Origin: a virus
Strand: one strand, 5' to 3'
UHGV virus genome: UHGV-0139945
Length of the DNA: 26,445 bases
Both the position numbers and the translations under genes were made by a program. This document shows, piece by piece, positions 16,091 to 23,695 of the stretch (position 1 is the first letter of the stretch; the number at the start of each line of letters is the position of its first letter). Under the pieces are notes generated by a model that saw only the letters and a program-made list of their open reading frames with translations, did no database searches and was not told the origin of the DNA.

Positions 16091-16300
16091 TCAAACTTTT
16101 TGTTCTTTAAGCTTGCTATACAGCTCCGGTTGGAAAACAAGTTTCCCATCGGTGCGGTACGCAGCTTCAGCAGCCCTCCCTTTTGGGATCAAGCGACCGG
16201 GTCTGTTCCGCCACTGATAAACAGCTTCGCTGGATATGCCAAAGAACTCGGCTACCTTCTCAGCGTTTCCAAAGTACTTTTCAACTTCATCGGTGGTCAT
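16091..16300 (-). CDS. Cro / YdaS-like HTH regulator, 69 aa
   Basis: Pattern AEKVAEFFGISSEAVYQWRNRPGRLIPKGRAAEAAYRTDGKL matches YdaS/Cro-like HTH proteins (recollection); strong RBS AAAGGAG; divergent from the repressor gene. Confidence 0.7.
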   Translation of the reverse strand: MTTDEVEKYFGNAEKVAEFFGISSEAVYQWRNRPGRLIPKGRAAEAAYRTDGKLVFQPELYSKLKEQKV

Positions 16301-16400: not shown

Positions 16401-17027
16401 ATGGAAACTGTCGGACAACGAATAAAATCGCTTAGGCGAATCACCAGAACCTCACAAAAAGAGCTTGGGAAGTTTTGTGGGGTCAGTGATGTCGCAGTTG
16501 GGTATTGGGAAAAGGATGTAAACGTCCCAGGAGGGGAGTCTCTTTCCAAACTAGCAAAATTCTTCAATACATCAATTGATTACATACTTTTTGGCACTGA
16601 GTTTGAGGGAAACTTAATAACTAAGATGCGAAAAGTTCCCGTGATATCGTGGGTGCAGGCAGGATTATTCACAGAATCAAAGCCTGAAGATGTCTTGCAT
16701 AATGCCGAAAAATGGGTGGAAACGTCTCTCCGCATCAGCGATAACTCGTTTGCCCTTGAAGTAAAGGGAGACTCAATGACAAATCCTAATGGACTGCCCA
16801 CGATTCCTGAGGGCGCAACGGTCATCGTTGATCCAGACATTGAGCCAATTCATGGAAAGATTGTAGTTGCACGAATAGATGGGACCAACGAGGCCACGGT
16901 CAAAAAACTGGTTGTAGACGGTCCGCAAAAATTTCTTGTCCCGCTAAATCCCCGTTATCCGAACATCGCCATCAATGGTAACTGCGTCATTATTGGTGTG
17001 GTTAAAGGCGTTCAATACGAGCTCTGA
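16401..17027 (+). CDS. CI-type prophage repressor (HTH_XRE + S24 LexA-like peptidase), 208 aa
   Basis: N-terminal HTH (QKELGKFCGVSDVAVGYWEKDVNVPGGESLSKLAKFF) and C-terminal S24 domain with GDSM serine and a downstream lysine (TVKKL). Confidence 0.9.
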   Translation: METVGQRIKSLRRITRTSQKELGKFCGVSDVAVGYWEKDVNVPGGESLSKLAKFFNTSIDYILFGTEFEGNLITKMRKVPVISWVQAGLFTESKPEDVLHNAEKWVETSLRISDNSFALEVKGDSMTNPNGLPTIPEGATVIVDPDIEPIHGKIVVARIDGTNEATVKKLVVDGPQKFLVPLNPRYPNIAINGNCVIIGVVKGVQYEL

Positions 17028-17079
17028 TCTAAGCTAATCTACCTTCGACACCAAGCTAAGAAAAGTTTGGTGTTTTTCC

Positions 17080-17108
17080 TTGACGATAAAACTAAGTTAA
17101 GTTAGATT
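17080..17108 (+). promoter_or_regulatory. pL-like early promoter overlapped by an operator
   Basis: -35 TTGACG (17080-17085), 17-bp spacer, -10 TAGATT (17103-17108); operator-like CTAAGTTAAGTTAG (17092-17105) overlaps spacer and -10. Confidence 0.45.
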
Positions 17109-18088
17109 TTCATCTATCAACAGCGAACAGGCAGGACGCCCACGAAGTAGCCGCCGGTGGCGTATGAATGACCGGATGATTCGCTGACAGATGTCTTCGG
17201 GAGGGGTAACAGAGAAGCGGTTTGATTACCCGCAACTCGTAGTCAAATTCCTATAGCTGGTGGCGATACCCAAGCCAGGAATACCGAAAACCAGCAGGAG
17301 TGTTAAGGATAAGGGCTAATCACTCCCTTAGCACCCCGCCCGAAGATATCTGAAGAACATGGCGAAAGCCTACAGCGTTGAAGGCGATTTTCTCGGTTTG
17401 CGCGCTAAACAATAGCGGGGGTGAAACCGGGGCGGAGAAGCAGAATCCGCGATGTCGGGACTTGATACTTCCGGCCATACCAACAAGCCGAATGATCGCG
17501 TAACGGTCCTTTGCATCTGCCCCGGCGAGGTGGCGCCGCCGGACCGGGGTAGATGAATCGAACACAACATGAAAGCGCATTCCATCTTCATCCGTCGTGG
17601 GGACTGGTTTGTAACTGTAGGGGTGCGCTTCCAGTTGTGAGCGGCAATATTCACAACCGTTGTATGGCACATGCAGCGTTAGCAGCCCGGATGGTTCCCT
17701 TGAAGTTCCATGCGCTATCCGGATAACTGGAATGTGCAAGCCAGGTGTTTCAGGCACGACGTGCGCCCCACCAGCGCGGCGAAAAGGTGTGACGCCCGGG
17801 AATAGTCCGGGACACAACGATGAGGGCATTGACGAGCAAGGCACAGAGTCTGGTTCGATTCCAGACGCCAGGATAGTTCTATATCTGGTGATGGGCAGGG
17901 AAAAGGTCCGTTCGATTCGGACACCGGCAGTGCTCTCTTCGTTGTGGTAATTGCGGCTATGCGCACGTGACGAGCCAAACCCGTTCAATGAATGCGTTTC
18001 CGGGCAGTGTACGTCGTCGGTTATGGCTTAACCCGGCAGGTGGAGGCACCACCGCCACAACCTAGTTAACTGTGCTGTGTGTAGTCTT

Positions 18089-18158
18089 GGCGGTTATCCA
18101 GTTTTCCACTATCCAAAGGAGGAAGAGGATAACGTTCTGATGGATAACCGCCCTTTTT
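18089..18158 (+). terminator. Large hairpin with T-tract (terminator-like) upstream of the early-left operon
   Basis: Perfect 12-bp inverted repeat GGCGGTTATCCA (18089-18100) / TGGATAACCGCC (18141-18152) followed by CTTTTT; about 40-nt loop with nested TATCC...GGATA pairing. Confidence 0.4.
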
Positions 18159-18297
18159 ACACAATACACAAGAGCATCACCGGGCGACGGGCTCATTACC
18201 CAATCCACCCGGGCGGCTTCTCAACCGCAGGTGCTCTTCTGTGTTGTGTACGGAGAAATTCCCGGCGGTGGCAGCCGCCTTTCGAGAGGGTAAAACC

Positions 18298-18669
18298 ATG
18301 AGTAATGATCGCATGACAGTCGTGCCCGATTTCCTGGGCGAACTGGACGCCGGCGTATTCATGAACAAGATTGCGGCGGCTCTTAATACCACCGCGCTCG
18401 GCGTTCTGAACAACGGCAACAAAGGCAAGGTAGTCCTTACCTTTGATTTTGAGCGAATGGGCAACTCTGTTGAAGAGAAGCGCGTCAAGATTAAGCACAA
18501 GCTGAACTACAGCACCCCAACGCCCCGCGGCAAAGCGTCGGAAGAGGACACCACCGAAACACCAATGTGGGTTAACAAAGGCGGCAAGCTCACTATCCTG
18601 CAGGAGGATCAGGGGCAACTCTTCGGTATCACCGGTACGGTGGACGGAAAGCTTAAAGCGGCTCAGTGA
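18298..18669 (+). CDS. Hypothetical early protein (YfdP-like by size and position), 123 aa
   Basis: ATG at 18298 preceded by GAGAGGG; first gene of a YfdP/YfdQ/YfdR-like trio (recollection of E. coli CPS-53). Confidence 0.55.
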   Translation: MSNDRMTVVPDFLGELDAGVFMNKIAAALNTTALGVLNNGNKGKVVLTFDFERMGNSVEEKRVKIKHKLNYSTPTPRGKASEEDTTETPMWVNKGGKLTILQEDQGQLFGITGTVDGKLKAAQ

Positions 18670-18725: not shown

Positions 18726-19553
18726 ATGTCTCAGTTAGACAGCGGTACTTTTCAGCAGGTTAAAGACCTGGTGCTTTCCGGTTATCACCTGAACGATATC
18801 CACGGCCTGGCCTGCCCGACTGCCCTGCTACCTCAGAATACCAGCGTTGAAAGTCTGGAGCGTTATTCTCTTGAGCGCTTCCGTTTCCGCGGCGCCATGG
18901 ACACAACCAGCATTGACGATTTCGTTCGCTATTCTGTCGCTTACGCCCAGGAAGAAGAAAAAGCCCGCTGCTTTATTGATGCCGATAACATGCTGGCGCG
19001 CTCTATCTTCAATATCGGCACGCTGGATAACCCAGGTCATGCTGACAACGTCGCCTCGATCAAGCTCAAGAAGACCGCCCCATTCCGCGCGTTACTGGCG
19101 ACCAACGGCGATCAACTTAATCAGAAGCAAATCGCTGAGTGGCTCGAAGACTGGAGCGACTATCTGCTGGCCTTTGATGCTAGCGGGAACACGATGACGA
19201 TCGCCCAGGCAGCGCAGGCTGTTCGCCGCGTCACTATTCAACAGGCAACCCAAGCCGATCATGAAGATAGCGACTTTAGCGGCAAAAAATCTCTGATGCA
19301 AAGTATCGAAGCCAGCAGCAAGGAGGTTATGCCGGTGGCGTTCGAGTTTAAATGCGTACCGTATGAAGGTCTTGGCGAACGTCGTTTCAGTCTGCGCAAC
19401 AGCCTGCTGAAAAGTAGCGACCCGATATTTGTTCTGCGCATTGTCCAGTTGGAGGCGCAGGAGGAAGCGATCGCCAATGAGTTCCGTGACCTGCTTGTTG
19501 GCAAGTTCGACGGCAAACCAGTGGATACCTTTATCGGCAACTTCAAAGCCTGA
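18726..19553 (+). CDS. YfdQ-like protein (DUF2303-type), 275 aa
   Basis: 275-aa ORF with AAGGAA RBS; size and neighbourhood match E. coli YfdQ (274 aa, recollection). Confidence 0.6.
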   Translation: MSQLDSGTFQQVKDLVLSGYHLNDIHGLACPTALLPQNTSVESLERYSLERFRFRGAMDTTSIDDFVRYSVAYAQEEEKARCFIDADNMLARSIFNIGTLDNPGHADNVASIKLKKTAPFRALLATNGDQLNQKQIAEWLEDWSDYLLAFDASGNTMTIAQAAQAVRRVTIQQATQADHEDSDFSGKKSLMQSIEASSKEVMPVAFEFKCVPYEGLGERRFSLRNSLLKSSDPIFVLRIVQLEAQEEAIANEFRDLLVGKFDGKPVDTFIGNFKA

Positions 19554-19685
19554 TTGCTCTCCATTAAATCCCCGGCGCCGCGGGGATTTATTAAAGCGTA
19601 ATCCTGCAATTTATCGCCATCTGGCGAGGGATTCCTATACCCAAAAAACAGCGCTGTGCAGAGCGCAATTAAATGGAGAAATGCA

Positions 19686-20213
19686 ATGAGCTTTATTCAA
19701 ACGTTTACTGGCAAACACTTTAACTATCTCGATATCCAGCAGGATGCCATCGAAATAGAAGATATCGCGAACGCTCTCTCGAATATCTGCCGCTTTGCAG
19801 GCCATCTGCCTGAGTTCTATAGCGTAGCGCAGCATAGTGTTTTAACGAGCAACCTTGTGCCGCAGGAGTTTGCGCTAGAAGCGCTGCTGCACGACGCAGC
19901 CGAGGCTTATTTGCAGGATATCCCGGCACCGCTTAAACGCCTGCTCCCGGACTACCGCGCAATTGAGGATCGGGTTGATGCCACTATTCGCCAAAAATTC
20001 GGCCTTCCTACTGAGCAACACCCGACCGTGAAGTATGCCGACCTTGTGATGCTGGCCAGCGAACGACGCGACTTTGAGATCGACGACGGCACCCACTGGC
20101 CGATGCTCGACGGCATTATTCCCACCGACCAATTTGTGATTAATCCCGTCCGCCCTGGCCAGTCTTACGGCATGTTCATGAACCGCTTTAACCAACTGAT
20201 GGAGCGGTGCTAA
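19686..20213 (+). CDS. HD-domain phosphohydrolase (YfdR-like 5'-deoxynucleotidase), 175 aa
   Basis: HD-domain pattern (AQHSVL...LLHDAAEAYLQDIP); start taken at ATG 19686 (MSFIQTF...) rather than track start 19656. Confidence 0.7.
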   Translation: MSFIQTFTGKHFNYLDIQQDAIEIEDIANALSNICRFAGHLPEFYSVAQHSVLTSNLVPQEFALEALLHDAAEAYLQDIPAPLKRLLPDYRAIEDRVDATIRQKFGLPTEQHPTVKYADLVMLASERRDFEIDDGTHWPMLDGIIPTDQFVINPVRPGQSYGMFMNRFNQLMERC

Positions 20214-20410
20214 TGGCACACGTGAAAGTGAAAGAATTGGTTGCTGCAGCGTACGCTGCGGCACCGGGTCTACCACCAGCAGAAGCCCAATTGATGCAAG
20301 ACATAGCGTCAAGGCTGGATGTGACCTTTGTCGCCCTTACAGAGGCAATGGACCAGAACACAGCGCTGTCGGCTGAAATAGAAAAGTTATGCGGAGTAAT
20401 CAAGAAATGA
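20213..20410 (+). CDS. Hypothetical protein, 65 aa
   Basis: ATG at 20213 overlaps upstream TAA (TAATG); track start 20207 is GTG. Confidence 0.45.
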   Translation: MAHVKVKELVAAAYAAAPGLPPAEAQLMQDIASRLDVTFVALTEAMDQNTALSAEIEKLCGVIKK

Positions 20411-20535
20411 ACGAAGAAACTGATTACCGCGGATTCTGGCGCGCTGCTGTTGTGAGCTGTGTTCTTTGCATTATTTTGTTCTGGCTCCCGGCAATCATCA
20501 TTTCAGCTTACTACTACCTGGAGGCCCACAGATGA
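20407..20535 (+). CDS. Small membrane peptide, 42 aa (not in ORF track)
   Basis: ATGA overlaps at both ends (20407-20410 and 20532-20535); product MNEETDYRGFWRAAVVSCVLCIILFWLPAIIISAYYYLEAHR has one clear transmembrane helix. Confidence 0.4.
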   Translation: MNEETDYRGFWRAAVVSCVLCIILFWLPAIIISAYYYLEAHR

Positions 20536-20837
20536 AAAAACTTAAATTCTACGGCGTCAGCGATGACCTCTTCGAGTGTGAAGGCGCTATACGTGAAGAA
20601 ATCTGTATGTATAGCAATCCTGGTGTTTATCACCTCAGATCATCTGAAGGGCAAATGCTGGTTATTGCCTGCTATACGGACGAGGGATGCTGGGCGATTG
20701 GCGTCGGTCAGGTCAATGAAGAGACTCCGCTCCCCTCATGGCCTACATCATTTAGCCAGCATGAGCGCGGCTATAGCGTGGTCTTAACGCTGCAGGTACC
20801 TGACGACACCGAGTTGGTATCGGAGGATGACGAATGA
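20532..20837 (+). CDS. Hypothetical acidic protein (YfdT-like by size), 101 aa
   Basis: Start at MKKLKFYGV with GGAGG RBS; Asp/Glu-rich, C-terminus ...TELVSEDDE. Confidence 0.55.
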   Translation: MKKLKFYGVSDDLFECEGAIREEICMYSNPGVYHLRSSEGQMLVIACYTDEGCWAIGVGQVNEETPLPSWPTSFSQHERGYSVVLTLQVPDDTELVSEDDE

Positions 20838-21160
20838 GCACGATTACAGCGCTTCCAGTTGAACGAGATCCGGAATACGGCTTCTGGACCCACCCCGCAT
20901 TTGATGATCTATGCGGAGAGCGTGAGGGCGTTCCATTTTCCGAGTTTAGGGAATGGCTTGATACGAACGGACTGGAATCAGTTACAGAGTATATGGATAG
21001 CATCGATGATAAATCGGTGTTGGCGGAGCACGAACTGTTTGGGACGTTCATCCAATGGCAGCCTGAATCACCACATGGAGACGGTTGGTTTATCGGCTCT
21101 ATTCACGATACCGAAGATGGACCTGTTTGTATCTGGTTGCGCGAGGTGAAGTATGACTGA
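20834..21160 (+). CDS. Hypothetical acidic protein, 108 aa
   Basis: ATGA overlap with upstream gene; Asp/Glu-rich. Confidence 0.55.
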   Translation: MSTITALPVERDPEYGFWTHPAFDDLCGEREGVPFSEFREWLDTNGLESVTEYMDSIDDKSVLAEHELFGTFIQWQPESPHGDGWFIGSIHDTEDGPVCIWLREVKYD

Positions 21161-21587
21161 TATCACCAACGTAGTTAAGAATCTGCGCCACTGGGCAAAG
21201 ATGGCCTCACTGACCAGCGAACAAGTTTCCTGCTTAAGCGTTCAGCAACTCGAAACTATTGCGAATGAGCTTGATTCAGCCCACCAGCTGATCGCCGAAC
21301 TTGAGTCATTTCGTACCGCTTACATGGAATGGAGCGATAAAACTGATTGGATTCAGACGGACAGACGATTTGACATGGTGAAGCCGCTAGGCAAACACCG
21401 CGCTGATGTGCTGAAGACGTATATCGATCATTTGGAATCTCGCGCCGTGAAACTGCCGAAGCGTACCGTTGGTGAAGTAATGCATATGAGCGGATTTAGC
21501 CGCGACTACGCCGAGGGTTGGTGCTCAGGCAATGATAACGCCATTCATGAAATGCGTGCCGCTGGCATCAAGGTTGAGGGGGAGTGA
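21153..21587 (+). CDS. Hypothetical protein, 144 aa
   Basis: ORF-track ORF; start overlaps upstream stop; no recognisable motif. Confidence 0.55.
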   Translation: MTDITNVVKNLRHWAKMASLTSEQVSCLSVQQLETIANELDSAHQLIAELESFRTAYMEWSDKTDWIQTDRRFDMVKPLGKHRADVLKTYIDHLESRAVKLPKRTVGEVMHMSGFSRDYAEGWCSGNDNAIHEMRAAGIKVEGE

Positions 21588-21940
21588 TGCGCCAAATCGG
21601 AGAGCTGATTACAGCGGAGAGAGCCGCCACTGTTATATACGAAACATTCGGACACCTGGACGCGAAGCCGGGGGAGCGACATAAAGGCTGGTTCGTTTTT
21701 ATCAACGGTCAGCATGGCGATATGGACGTGGTGTACAGCGACTTTCCAACGTTTGGTGAAGGCCCTGGATATTTCACTGACAGAGAGGACTTCATCTGGG
21801 AGTTAATTCGTGATGATGGTCCATGCGCTGCTGTCGGCATCTACCGGTTCGATGGTGAATATCGCCTGCCCAAAAGAAAAGGTCCGGCCCGTTTCGTTGG
21901 TAAAACCACCTGCATTCAGACATTCGGGGAGGCTGAGTGA
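21587..21940 (+). CDS. Hypothetical protein, 117 aa
   Basis: ATG at 21587 overlaps upstream TGA (TGATG); track start 21584 is GTG. Confidence 0.5.
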   Translation: MRQIGELITAERAATVIYETFGHLDAKPGERHKGWFVFINGQHGDMDVVYSDFPTFGEGPGYFTDREDFIWELIRDDGPCAAVGIYRFDGEYRLPKRKGPARFVGKTTCIQTFGEAE

Positions 21941-22311
21941 TGTGGAGAGGAACCGATCGCACCAGAAGCCAGATGATACTGACCGAGTATCAGTACGACT
22001 ATCAGAAGAAAAACTCACGCTCTGTTTACCTGGTGCGACATAACAGCCGCATTCAGCAGACGGTTCTGGAGCAATTCCTGACGGTGGATCGCGATAGCTT
22101 CGGTCGCTTTATGCCGACTATCGAACTGAAAGACTTCCCTGAGCAGCTTAGCGACCGCGAGTCGATGCTCAAACTTGCCGACTGGCTGCACCGCTTACCC
22201 GCCACCAAGCAAAATATGTATCGGCAATCTGGCAGAAACTATTGCCTTCAAACGACGAATAATAACCCTAATCGCCCGGGTGCAGCCGGGCAATGGAGAA
22301 ATCTATGCTGA
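21940..22311 (+). CDS. Hypothetical protein, 123 aa
   Basis: ATG at 21940 overlaps upstream TGA; basic product; last gene before xis. Confidence 0.45.
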   Translation: MWRGTDRTRSQMILTEYQYDYQKKNSRSVYLVRHNSRIQQTVLEQFLTVDRDSFGRFMPTIELKDFPEQLSDRESMLKLADWLHRLPATKQNMYRQSGRNYCLQTTNNNPNRPGAAGQWRNLC

Positions 22312-22511
22312 GCCTCGATTGTGTTCCCATCTCAACTTATTGCAAAGAGACTGGCGAAACCCCTGATGCCATAAATAAGCGCATCCAGCGCGGCGTATGG
22401 CGTGAAGGGGTACAGGTGCTAAAGGTCGAAGGCGTTAAGGAAAGATGGATAGATCTTAGTGAGGTTGCAAAATGGGCTCGACAAAATCGCCTAAACTCCC
22501 GCGCGGCGTAA
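22293..22511 (+). CDS. Excisionase (Xis-like DNA-binding protein), 72 aa
   Basis: Small basic protein just upstream of int and overlapping it by 40 nt; winged-helix-like DAINKRIQRGVWREGVQVLKVEGVKERWIDLSEVAKW; ATG at 22305 is an alternative start. Confidence 0.65.
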   Translation: MEKSMLSLDCVPISTYCKETGETPDAINKRIQRGVWREGVQVLKVEGVKERWIDLSEVAKWARQNRLNSRAA

Positions 22512-23638
22512 CCATCAGGAAACATAGCAACGGAGAAACTATCAATATTACTTTTACATATAAGGGAGTTAAGTGCCGTGAACCCCTTTCTAATCTGGAA
22601 GTTTCTTCGAAAAACATTAAATATGCTGAGCGAACACTCGGAGAAATTCATAACAAAATCGAAAGAGGAACGTTTGTTTATGCAGAATACTTCCCCCGTT
22701 CTACCCGGTTAAAAATCTTTGGGAATGCTGCCTCCGGCAAAACGGTGAAAATGTATCTAGATGAATATCTTGTGATTTGCGAAACGAGGAAGTTATCCCC
22801 TTCAACGATCGGCGGCTACAAAAAATGCCGTAGCGCATTGTCATCGCTTCACGTTTTTCCCGCAAGTGAGTTAACGCCGGCTGCATTGAAGGCATGGATC
22901 CAAGATCAGAAAACGACCTTGAAGACCATCCGAAACCAACTTTCTTTCCTGCGCTCTGCAATGGATGAAGCGGTAACAGATGGTATTCTCCAGATTAACC
23001 CTGTTTCACTAGTAACAGCCTCACGTTACCAGAGTGACAAATCAGTGTCAGAAAGTAGTTATGTGGTTGACCCGCTATCACCAGCCGAAGTACATGCTTT
23101 GCTCACAGCTGCTGGCAATAAACAATGGGAGAACCTCTTTCGATTCGCCATCCAAACTGGCCTGCGTAGTTCTGAGCTGTGTGCTCTTCGTTGGCGTGAT
23201 ATCGATTTTGTAGGGAAGACAGCCCACGTTCAGAATGCCACCGTAGTTGGCGTAATCAAAGGGACCAAAACAAAAGCTGGAACACGGAAGGTTGAACTAA
23301 CTGACGAAGCAATGCTTGCGTTAGTTAGTCAGAAACCGTTCACTTTTATGAAAGATGATACGATCTTCGAAGATCCAAAAAGTAATAAAGCATGGGCAAG
23401 TGCTGATGCAATAAGAAAAAAAGCGTGGGTACCAACCTTACGAAAGGCAGGCATCCGCTATCGTAATCCATACCAAACCCGGCACACTTTTGCTACCCGT
23501 CACATTAGCCAAGGTGCCAATCTTTTTTGGTTAGCCACACAAATGGGGCATAAAGGACCAGAGATGCTTTTCCGTCACTACGGCTCATATCTGAAGGAAT
23601 ATGATGGACAAACAAGCCTGAAGAAGATAACAATATAA
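22472..23638 (+). CDS. int: Tyrosine recombinase / phage integrase (lambda Int-like), 388 aa
   Basis: Arm-binding-like N-terminus and C-terminal catalytic residues (TRHTFATRH, LATQMGHKGPEMLFRHYGSY); GC falls sharply immediately downstream. Confidence 0.9.
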   Translation: MGSTKSPKLPRGVTIRKHSNGETINITFTYKGVKCREPLSNLEVSSKNIKYAERTLGEIHNKIERGTFVYAEYFPRSTRLKIFGNAASGKTVKMYLDEYLVICETRKLSPSTIGGYKKCRSALSSLHVFPASELTPAALKAWIQDQKTTLKTIRNQLSFLRSAMDEAVTDGILQINPVSLVTASRYQSDKSVSESSYVVDPLSPAEVHALLTAAGNKQWENLFRFAIQTGLRSSELCALRWRDIDFVGKTAHVQNATVVGVIKGTKTKAGTRKVELTDEAMLALVSQKPFTFMKDDTIFEDPKSNKAWASADAIRKKAWVPTLRKAGIRYRNPYQTRHTFATRHISQGANLFWLATQMGHKGPEMLFRHYGSYLKEYDGQTSLKKITI

Positions 23639-23695
23639 TCCATGTCTGAACTATTGGCCACAATTTGTGGCCATTTCATGGAACAAGGTACAAAC

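Follow-up and report, generated by a model that had tools for sequence, protein, structure and literature searches.

Organization of the locus

The stretch of DNA analysed here (the window) spans 26,445 nucleotides of the virus genome UHGV-0139945 and is a lambdoid prophage of Klebsiella, of the ST64B/phiNP/LLS type, that is apparently complete from terminase to int. Within the phage collection it is closest to Klebsiella phage Kp4866-6, Citrobacter phiNP, Salmonella ST64B and E. coli LLS, Flotzy and Eeyore. Beyond a cro-like gene and an S24/HTH repressor gene lie a terminator-like hairpin, a promoter-like site and a 1.19-kb leader that is free of any credible ORF between the candidate pL and yfdP. 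The leader ends at a cassette of three genes, which encode homologues of YfdP and YfdQ and an HD-domain protein (Table 1). On the 3' side of the HD gene there are six small genes of unknown function, followed by xis and int, all of them on the plus strand. Defence-type cargo genes are present 3' of int.

This layout puts the cassette at the position of the lambda pL operon, so that the early-operon placement proposed in the first-pass annotation agrees with what synteny indicates, and the homologous region of ST64B and LLS has been named the early left operon (PMC12315714). The cassette appears to be transcribed from an early-left promoter, in the place taken in lambda by N and the recombination genes; we infer both the use of this promoter and the early timing from the layout. 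In the consensus scan, promoter-like sites in the region as a whole are fewer than in shuffles. Because there is no excess of such matches, the candidate pL was assigned by its position.

Table 1 Features of the repressor, leader and cassette region, with the downstream xis and int genes
Feature	Coordinates	Strand	Basis
cro-like gene (P22-Cro-like)	16091-16300	-	gene layout
S24/HTH repressor gene, cI-like	16401-17027	+	gene layout
Terminator-like hairpin just 3' of the repressor gene (stop 17027)	17047-17074	+	consensus scan: 11-pair stem, then TTTCCTTG
Promoter-like TTGACG-17-TAGATT, candidate pL for the cassette operon	17080-17108	+	consensus scan, 9/12 matches
Conserved RNA element of about 65 nt at the 5' end of the predicted early-left transcript	17122-17184	+	conservation and covariation
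YfdP homologue, 123 aa from ATG	18298-18669	+	59% identity to K-12 YfdP
YfdQ/DUF2303 homologue, 275 aa	18726-19553	+	56% identity to K-12 YfdQ; PF10065
Structured spacer with three hairpins	19554-19685	+	spacer alignment, folds
HP1, terminator-like	19566-19589	+	consensus structure
HP2	19614-19627	+	consensus structure
HP3	19651-19666	terminator-like on - strand (consensus scan)	single-sequence folds only
YfdR-type HD phosphohydrolase, 175 aa, putative 5'-deoxynucleotidase	19686-20213	+	66% identity to K-12 YfdR
xis	22293-22511	+	gene layout
int	22472-23638	+	gene layout

Identity and order of the cassette genes

The three proteins were compared by BLASTP with the E. coli K-12 CPS-53 proteins from NC_000913.3, which gave E values of 2e-49 for YfdP, 3e-111 for YfdQ and 2e-88 for YfdR, the last in an ungapped alignment over 173 of 175 aa. 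The first-pass annotation had assigned the 123-aa and 275-aa genes as YfdP and YfdQ and the HD protein as YfdR type, and sequence, size and order all bear this out (123, 275 and 175 aa, against 120, 274 and 178 aa in K-12). The motifs by which the HD protein had been recognized, AQHSVL and LLHDAAEAY, are both present in it. The interval that had been assigned to the group, 18726-20213, does hold the YfdQ and HD genes, whereas the gene for the YfdP homologue lies outside it. The start of the HD gene also has to be moved. The GTG at 19656, taken from the ORF list, is probably unused, and since all homologues and the YfdR alignment begin at MSFI..., the start is almost certainly the ATG at 19686, with GGAG at 19675-19678 on its 5' side. 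On its sequence, the HD protein is an orthologue of CPS-53 YfdR and belongs to the class of putative YfdR-type HD phosphohydrolases (EC 3.1.3.89).

The order P-Q-HD is kept in all 80 IMG/VR loci as well as in K-12 and ST64B, and a YfdP homologue was found 5' of YfdQ in 81 of these 82 close loci, the exception being a locus (L027) that begins at YfdQ and is thereby cut short of the gene before it. Downstream of the cassette the content is variable, with a next gene that is common to 39 of the 82 loci and every other one to fewer than 8. Identities within the cassette are mosaic across the close loci (YfdP at 99% alongside HD at 68%, for example), which shows that recombination occurs within it.

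The cassette is ordinary in the sense that it is already catalogued and found in many lambda-like phages. Entries that match the window proteins exactly or almost exactly already bear the names 'YfdQ family protein' and 'HD family hydrolase', and the 275-aa protein has a 100% identical counterpart in Klebsiella pneumoniae with the annotation 'DUF2303/YfdQ family protein'. It has previously been noted in CPS-53, SfV, ST64B and LLS, biochemical and genetic work on its HD member exists from E. coli, and the trio has been described as common in lambdoid early-left operons (PMC12315714). Novelty is therefore low, as the cassette has been both annotated and discussed in the literature.

The HD protein and its likely substrates

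The proposal that the HD protein is a nucleotidase depended on conservation of the HD-motif residues, and in an alignment of 67 unique homologues with 40-97% identity H50, H69, D70 and D119 are invariant. Conservation of R36, F37, E73 and D78 extends to 66-67 of the same 67 sequences; R36-F37 align to the RW of Atu1052, and in the YfbR segment HDASEvltGD the counterparts of E73 and D78 are its E and D. Zimmerman is said to have found in 2008 that R18/W19, E72 and D77 are the substrate and catalytic residues of YfbR, an enzyme that is reportedly dNMP-specific. The pocket residues of the HD protein (R-aromatic, E and D) are presumably the equivalents of these YfbR substrate and catalytic residues.

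The HD protein matches PHROG 318, 'deoxyribonucleoside 5' monophosphate phosphatase', with an E value of 5.4e-97, and its nearest solved structure is PDB 2gz4 (Atu1052; E 2.5e-11). It scores below the cut-offs of both Pfam PF12917 (YfbR-like; 22.1 against 25.9 bits) and NCBIfam PRK03826 (18.9 against 122 bits). These sub-threshold scores indicate that the HD protein is not a YfbR equivalog, so that substrate preference is not confidently transferable from YfbR. K-12 YfdR is annotated as a 5'-deoxynucleotidase (EcoCyc/RefSeq). It has been described as a structural homologue of YfbR that binds nucleotides with much lower affinity and whose function is elusive (PMC4776307, citing Zimmerman 2008), and both a weak dNMP phosphatase activity and DnaA binding have been published for it (PMC4776307). 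Its DnaA-binding activity had no place in the first-pass annotation.

The HD superfamily includes cyclic-nucleotide phosphodiesterases, and one Caulobacter phage homologue of the HD protein is annotated 'HD-domain/PDEase-like'. Together with the early-operon position, this counts towards the suggestion that the HD protein is a counter-defence enzyme, which would degrade the signals of CBASS, Thoeris, Pycsar or type III CRISPR systems or counter nucleotide-depleting defences. We consider this highly improbable. The PHROG annotation is that of a dNMP phosphatase, the conserved pocket residues match the mononucleotide-specific YfbR class, the PADLOC models give no match for the HD protein, YfdP or YfdQ, and full-text literature searches returned no publication that ties YfdR-type proteins to anti-defence.

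YfdP and YfdQ as a probable module separate from the HD gene

The HD protein had been presented as an enzyme with a YfdQ-like partner, a pairing that for the most part does not hold outside the close relatives. Distant YfdQ loci were reached by tblastn on the phage collection, in 13 phages: Xanthomonas CP2, Pseudomonas pAN and SC_9, five Vibrio phages, Hafnia yong2, E. coli ArgO145 and three IMG/VR contigs. In 12 of the 13 the gene directly 5' of YfdQ encodes a YfdP homologue (E 1e-17 to 1e-66). At the thirteenth locus (L095) phmmer missed an upstream 136-aa ORF that shows 22% identity on alignment. An HD homologue, by contrast, is near YfdQ in only two, adjacent to it in Hafnia yong2 and three genes further downstream in pAN. 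In the remaining 11, no HD homologue occurs within 3.5 kb of YfdQ. The neighbours of the YfdP-YfdQ pair in the distant phages are often Erf/RecT, an exonuclease and SSB.

The two families also have largely different distributions across the phage collection. The HD family occurs in 285 records, led by phages of Bacillus, Caulobacter, Escherichia, Vibrio, Pseudomonas and Stenotrophomonas and including jumbo phages, whereas the YfdQ family occurs in 181, led by Escherichia, Vibrio, Stx2a-converting, Stx2c-converting and Xanthomonas phages. From the constancy of the P-Q pairing and these separate distributions we conclude that the conserved functional unit is YfdP-YfdQ. As far as gene content can indicate, YfdP-YfdQ is a separate two-gene module that is much more widely conserved than its linkage to the HD gene, and the HD gene is best read as a module of its own that is linked to YfdP-YfdQ in enterobacterial lambdoid phages.

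These data bear on the possibility that YfdP, YfdQ and the HD protein make up one obligate functional complex, as might be expected from the invariant P-Q-HD order in the 82 enterobacterial loci and from the joint requirement for yfdQ and yfdR in the K-12 multicopy phenotype (PMC4776307). The lack of an HD gene beside P-Q in 11 of the 13 distant phages and the differing family distributions argue against it, as do the mosaic identities, which show recombination between the modules, and a conserved terminator-like hairpin between Q and the HD gene. In addition, judging from published pull-downs, neither YfdR nor DnaA is bound with high affinity by YfdQ, YfdS or YfdT (PMC4776307). An obligate complex is accordingly improbable.

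Both members of the YfdP-YfdQ module belong to named families. Residues 31-273 of the YfdQ homologue match PF10065 (DUF2303) at 214.8 bits against a cut-off of 26.6, and the AF2 model of this protein has a pLDDT of 90.9. The YfdP homologue falls in PHROG 204, and its homologues are labelled PF27127. The YfdQ family comprises 1363 clusters at 50% identity, and in the phage collection the YfdP-YfdQ pair extends over phages that infect Enterobacterales, Vibrio, Pseudomonas and Xanthomonas.

No fold relative of YfdP or YfdQ was found among the searched PDB structures, in a fold library that did not hold PDB 9o7m. The YfdQ family profile matches this entry, 'YfdQ Protein' with 36 chains, at an E value of 6e-87, and the 9o7m sequence is 93-99% identical to a protein of Xanthomonas CP2-like podophages. 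Full-text literature searches found no publication for 9o7m, and a Xanthomonas phage cryo-EM preprint that was considered as its source deposits other codes. CP2 YfdP and ORF36 were not found in the PDB. The proximity of Erf/RecT, exonuclease and SSB genes also led us to consider YfdQ as a hidden recombinase; we rejected this, given that a full Rec module is also present in ArgO145 and that the idea has no fold support, and it has been argued against elsewhere (PMC12315714).

Conserved RNA structure in the spacer and the leader

Between yfdQ and the HD gene, the 13 aligned spacers measure 127-141 nt, and the Hafnia yong2 spacer (L091) has only 90 nt and no HP2 or HP3. RNAalifold finds six pairs with compensatory (double) changes in the yfdQ-HD spacer. 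HP1 has a GC-rich stem between an A-tract and AUUUAUU, and the changes in its stem are compensatory between lineages. It may be a weak intrinsic terminator, one that uncouples transcription of the HD gene from that of yfdPQ.

A second conserved RNA element lies at the start of the leader, about 14 nt 3' of the promoter-like -10. The element is almost invariant and occurs in 61 fetched loci and 53 phage records. Its carriers include ST64B, SfV, SfII, SfIV, phiNP, ZF40, mEp460 and mEp237, together with YeP phages, one Aeromonas phage and T5-like Providencia phages. In the 53 phage records the region is annotated with no feature or only as a hypothetical protein, and never as an RNA feature. One stem (17154-17158/17171-17175) has three pairs with compensatory changes, and there are two short invariant helices in addition. 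Rfam gave no match in either the leader or the yfdQ-HD spacer, and blastn found no similarity between the element and HK022 putL or the HK022 pL-nun interval. An 11-nt match of the element to HK022 falls inside the HK022 cI gene and was discarded as spurious. The 1.19-kb leader has no N-like ORF. Phage LLS is likewise said to be without N, and put-like RNA antitermination has been suggested for it (PMC12315714). Since the leader is without an N-like ORF and LLS offers this precedent, the most economical reading of the element is a candidate put-like cis-acting antiterminator.

Function of the cassette

We put a probability of roughly three in four on the reading in which the window carries the YfdP-YfdQ-YfdR cassette in the early-left position, with the HD protein as a dNMP phosphohydrolase and YfdPQ as a separate module. 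The HD protein would then be a divalent-metal phosphohydrolase whose H...HD...D site is intact and whose pocket residues are those of the YfbR/YfdR deoxynucleotidase class, and would most likely hydrolyse deoxynucleoside 5'-monophosphates to deoxynucleoside and phosphate early in the lytic cycle. DnaA binding could be a second activity of the same protein, and the conserved terminator-like hairpin would separate its gene from yfdPQ. We infer the enzymatic activity, and with it any effect on nucleotide pools, from these features. The reshaping of dNTP pools that the first-pass annotation had raised is plausible; what the protein does for the phage, whether through nucleotide pools or against host defences, is at present speculation.

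A different emphasis would make the main role of the HD protein non-enzymatic. It would bind DnaA domain I (around Phe46), compete with DiaA and DnaB and so damp initiation at the host oriC, possibly aided by YfdQ. The HD protein is 66% identical to YfdR, purified YfdR binds DnaA, multicopy yfdQRS or yfdQRT has an inhibitory effect on initiation both in vivo and in vitro, and the authors propose that there was a part to play in an ancestral phage, comparable to that of lambda P (PMC4776307). However, the in vivo effect required yfdQ and yfdR plus yfdS or yfdT (PMC4776307), and tblastn with the K-12 proteins finds neither a YfdS nor a YfdT homologue in the window (no match better than E 0.35). 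YfdR alone inhibited moderately, deletion had no phenotype, and the effect of overexpression was perhaps an artefact according to the authors (PMC4776307). The strict conservation of the catalytic residues, moreover, speaks for selection on the enzyme activity. We therefore regard a mainly non-enzymatic role as unlikely, although DnaA binding is compatible with dNMP phosphatase activity and the two are not mutually exclusive.

Beyond the phosphohydrolase reading, a broader one can be sketched, which we hold to be distinctly unlikely. YfdP-YfdQ would be an ancient, self-contained early module, maybe a large homo-oligomeric machine (given the 36 chains of 9o7m) that acts on DNA or host replication, and with the HD enzyme recruited in enterobacterial lambdoid phages the trio would take over DnaA-dependent initiation and nucleotide supply. 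If this were true, the cassette would be a previously unrecognized host-takeover or counter-defence system and not a stray nucleotidase.

The cassette is very common in the early operon of temperate phages of clinically important Enterobacterales. Learning whether it acts on dNMP pools, on DnaA or on another target would close a real gap in what is understood of lambdoid phages, and in experiments YfdP-YfdQ and the HD enzyme are best handled as two separable modules.

Comparison with known systems

Phage T5 has an early-expressed dNMP phosphatase in Dmp, a pre-early 5'-deoxyribonucleotidase. The PHROG 318 name of the HD protein, 'deoxyribonucleoside 5' monophosphate phosphatase', shares the wording used for Dmp, which we take to be a likeness by description. 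T5, however, is a lytic phage that breaks down the DNA of its host, and the temperate phage of the window shows no evident sign of such a context.

Among the bacterial proteins, YfbR (PDB 2PAQ) has the same HD fold class, an HD..E..D segment that aligns and an R-aromatic motif upstream, but its similarity to the HD protein is marginal (E 0.31) and it is a chromosomal housekeeping enzyme. Agrobacterium Atu1052 (PDB 2GZ4) aligns to residues 7-170 of the HD protein, in an alignment that takes in RW, H, HD and D; as a structural-genomics HD protein, it informs on the fold only.

For YfdQ, the Xanthomonas CP2-like protein of PDB 9o7m belongs to the same DUF2303 family, and the CP2 gene also follows a YfdP homologue. 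The 9o7m protein, however, has only about 35-39% identity to enterobacterial YfdQ proteins, and CP2 has no HD gene beside YfdQ, where genes for a 511-aa protein, Erf, an exonuclease and SSB come next.

Further likenesses are those of the whole cassette. CPS-53 yfdP-yfdQ-yfdR (b2359-b2361) has the same three genes in the same order, with similar sizes and a Q-R spacer of about 130 nt, but CPS-53 is a decayed remnant without an immunity region and continues into yfdS and yfdT, whereas the window has a homologue of neither. In ST64B (Sb37/Sb36/Sb35), LLS (gp39/38/37), phiNP and Kp4866-6 the downstream accessory genes are others and the leader is mosaic, but these phages carry the same cassette in the same early-left position, with a DNA identity of 75-88%, downstream of an HK022-like repressor and a long ORF-free leader.

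Leader RNA element

Directly behind the candidate pL promoter of this lambdoid Klebsiella prophage lies a short conserved RNA element (Table), which is present in 61 of the loci we fetched and in 53 phage records from Enterobacterales and Aeromonas. In those records the annotation at the element is either nothing or a hypothetical protein only, and a search of Rfam returned no family match. Three pairs of one of its stems covary, and we regard the element as a candidate put-like antiterminator. Its central 40 nt also recur, at 90–92% identity, in T5-like Providencia phages.

Table: Positions of the features discussed.
Feature	Location	Strand	Remarks
Conserved RNA element, ~65 nt	17122-17184	+	immediately 3' of the early-left promoter-like site
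Leader, 1.19 kb	17109-18297	+	repressor gene to yfdP; no credible ORF
yfdQ–HD gene spacer	19554-19685	+	conserved length, three hairpins
HP1 (spacer hairpin)	19566-19589		terminator-like
HP3 (spacer hairpin)	19651-19666		terminator-like when read on the - strand
Six small genes	20207-22311	+	between HD gene and xis
Two low-GC (about 0.34) genes	23642-26390	+	directly downstream of integrase
Element, central 40 nt	Providencia phage PSTCR5, NC_055910.1 55457-55496		
Element, central 40 nt	Providencia phage vB_PreS_PR1, NC_041913.1 5191-5230		two places; copies inside annotated 'repeat_region'
ORF37 (YfdQ homologue)	Xanthomonas phage CP2 (locus L087) 3068-3892		DUF2303 family, like PDB 9o7m

yfdP, yfdQ and the genes downstream

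A solved structure titled 'YfdQ Protein' (PDB 9o7m; 36 chains, single sequence) represents a DUF2303 family member from a CP2-like Xanthomonas podophage; our literature search found no publication for it, and the PDB library behind the fold searches was without this entry. In the distant phages CP2, Vibrio 44E38.1 and ArgO145, the YfdP–YfdQ pair adjoins recombination and replication genes, its neighbours being Erf or RecT, an exonuclease, SSB and an RNase T-like protein, and because of this company there are hints of a role for the pair in DNA metabolism. The spacer between yfdQ and the YfdR-type HD gene measures 127–141 nt in the 13 aligned loci, compared with 90 nt in Hafnia yong2, and its three-hairpin fold shows compensatory changes.

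The small genes that separate the HD gene from xis vary among otherwise near-identical prophages, being found in 3–39 of 82 loci; their only matches are to PHROG families of unknown function, and the gene at 21584-21940 has no match at all. Beyond the integrase, at the prophage end, stand an AAA_15/AAA_21 ATPase of 595 aa, similar to PtuA, GajA and AriA, and a 293-aa D12 N6-adenine methyltransferase (PADLOC PD-Lambda-5_B, E 5e-123), a pair that is likely to be defence cargo.

Leader mosaic

The leader as a whole is a mosaic. Blocks such as 17552-17834 and 17764-18258 recur at 82–86% identity in Klebsiella and Stx2 phages that otherwise differ, in stretches annotated 'none', and the block directly 5' of yfdP (about 18150-18297) is kept in most loci. 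In lambda, the place occupied here by this leader is that of N.
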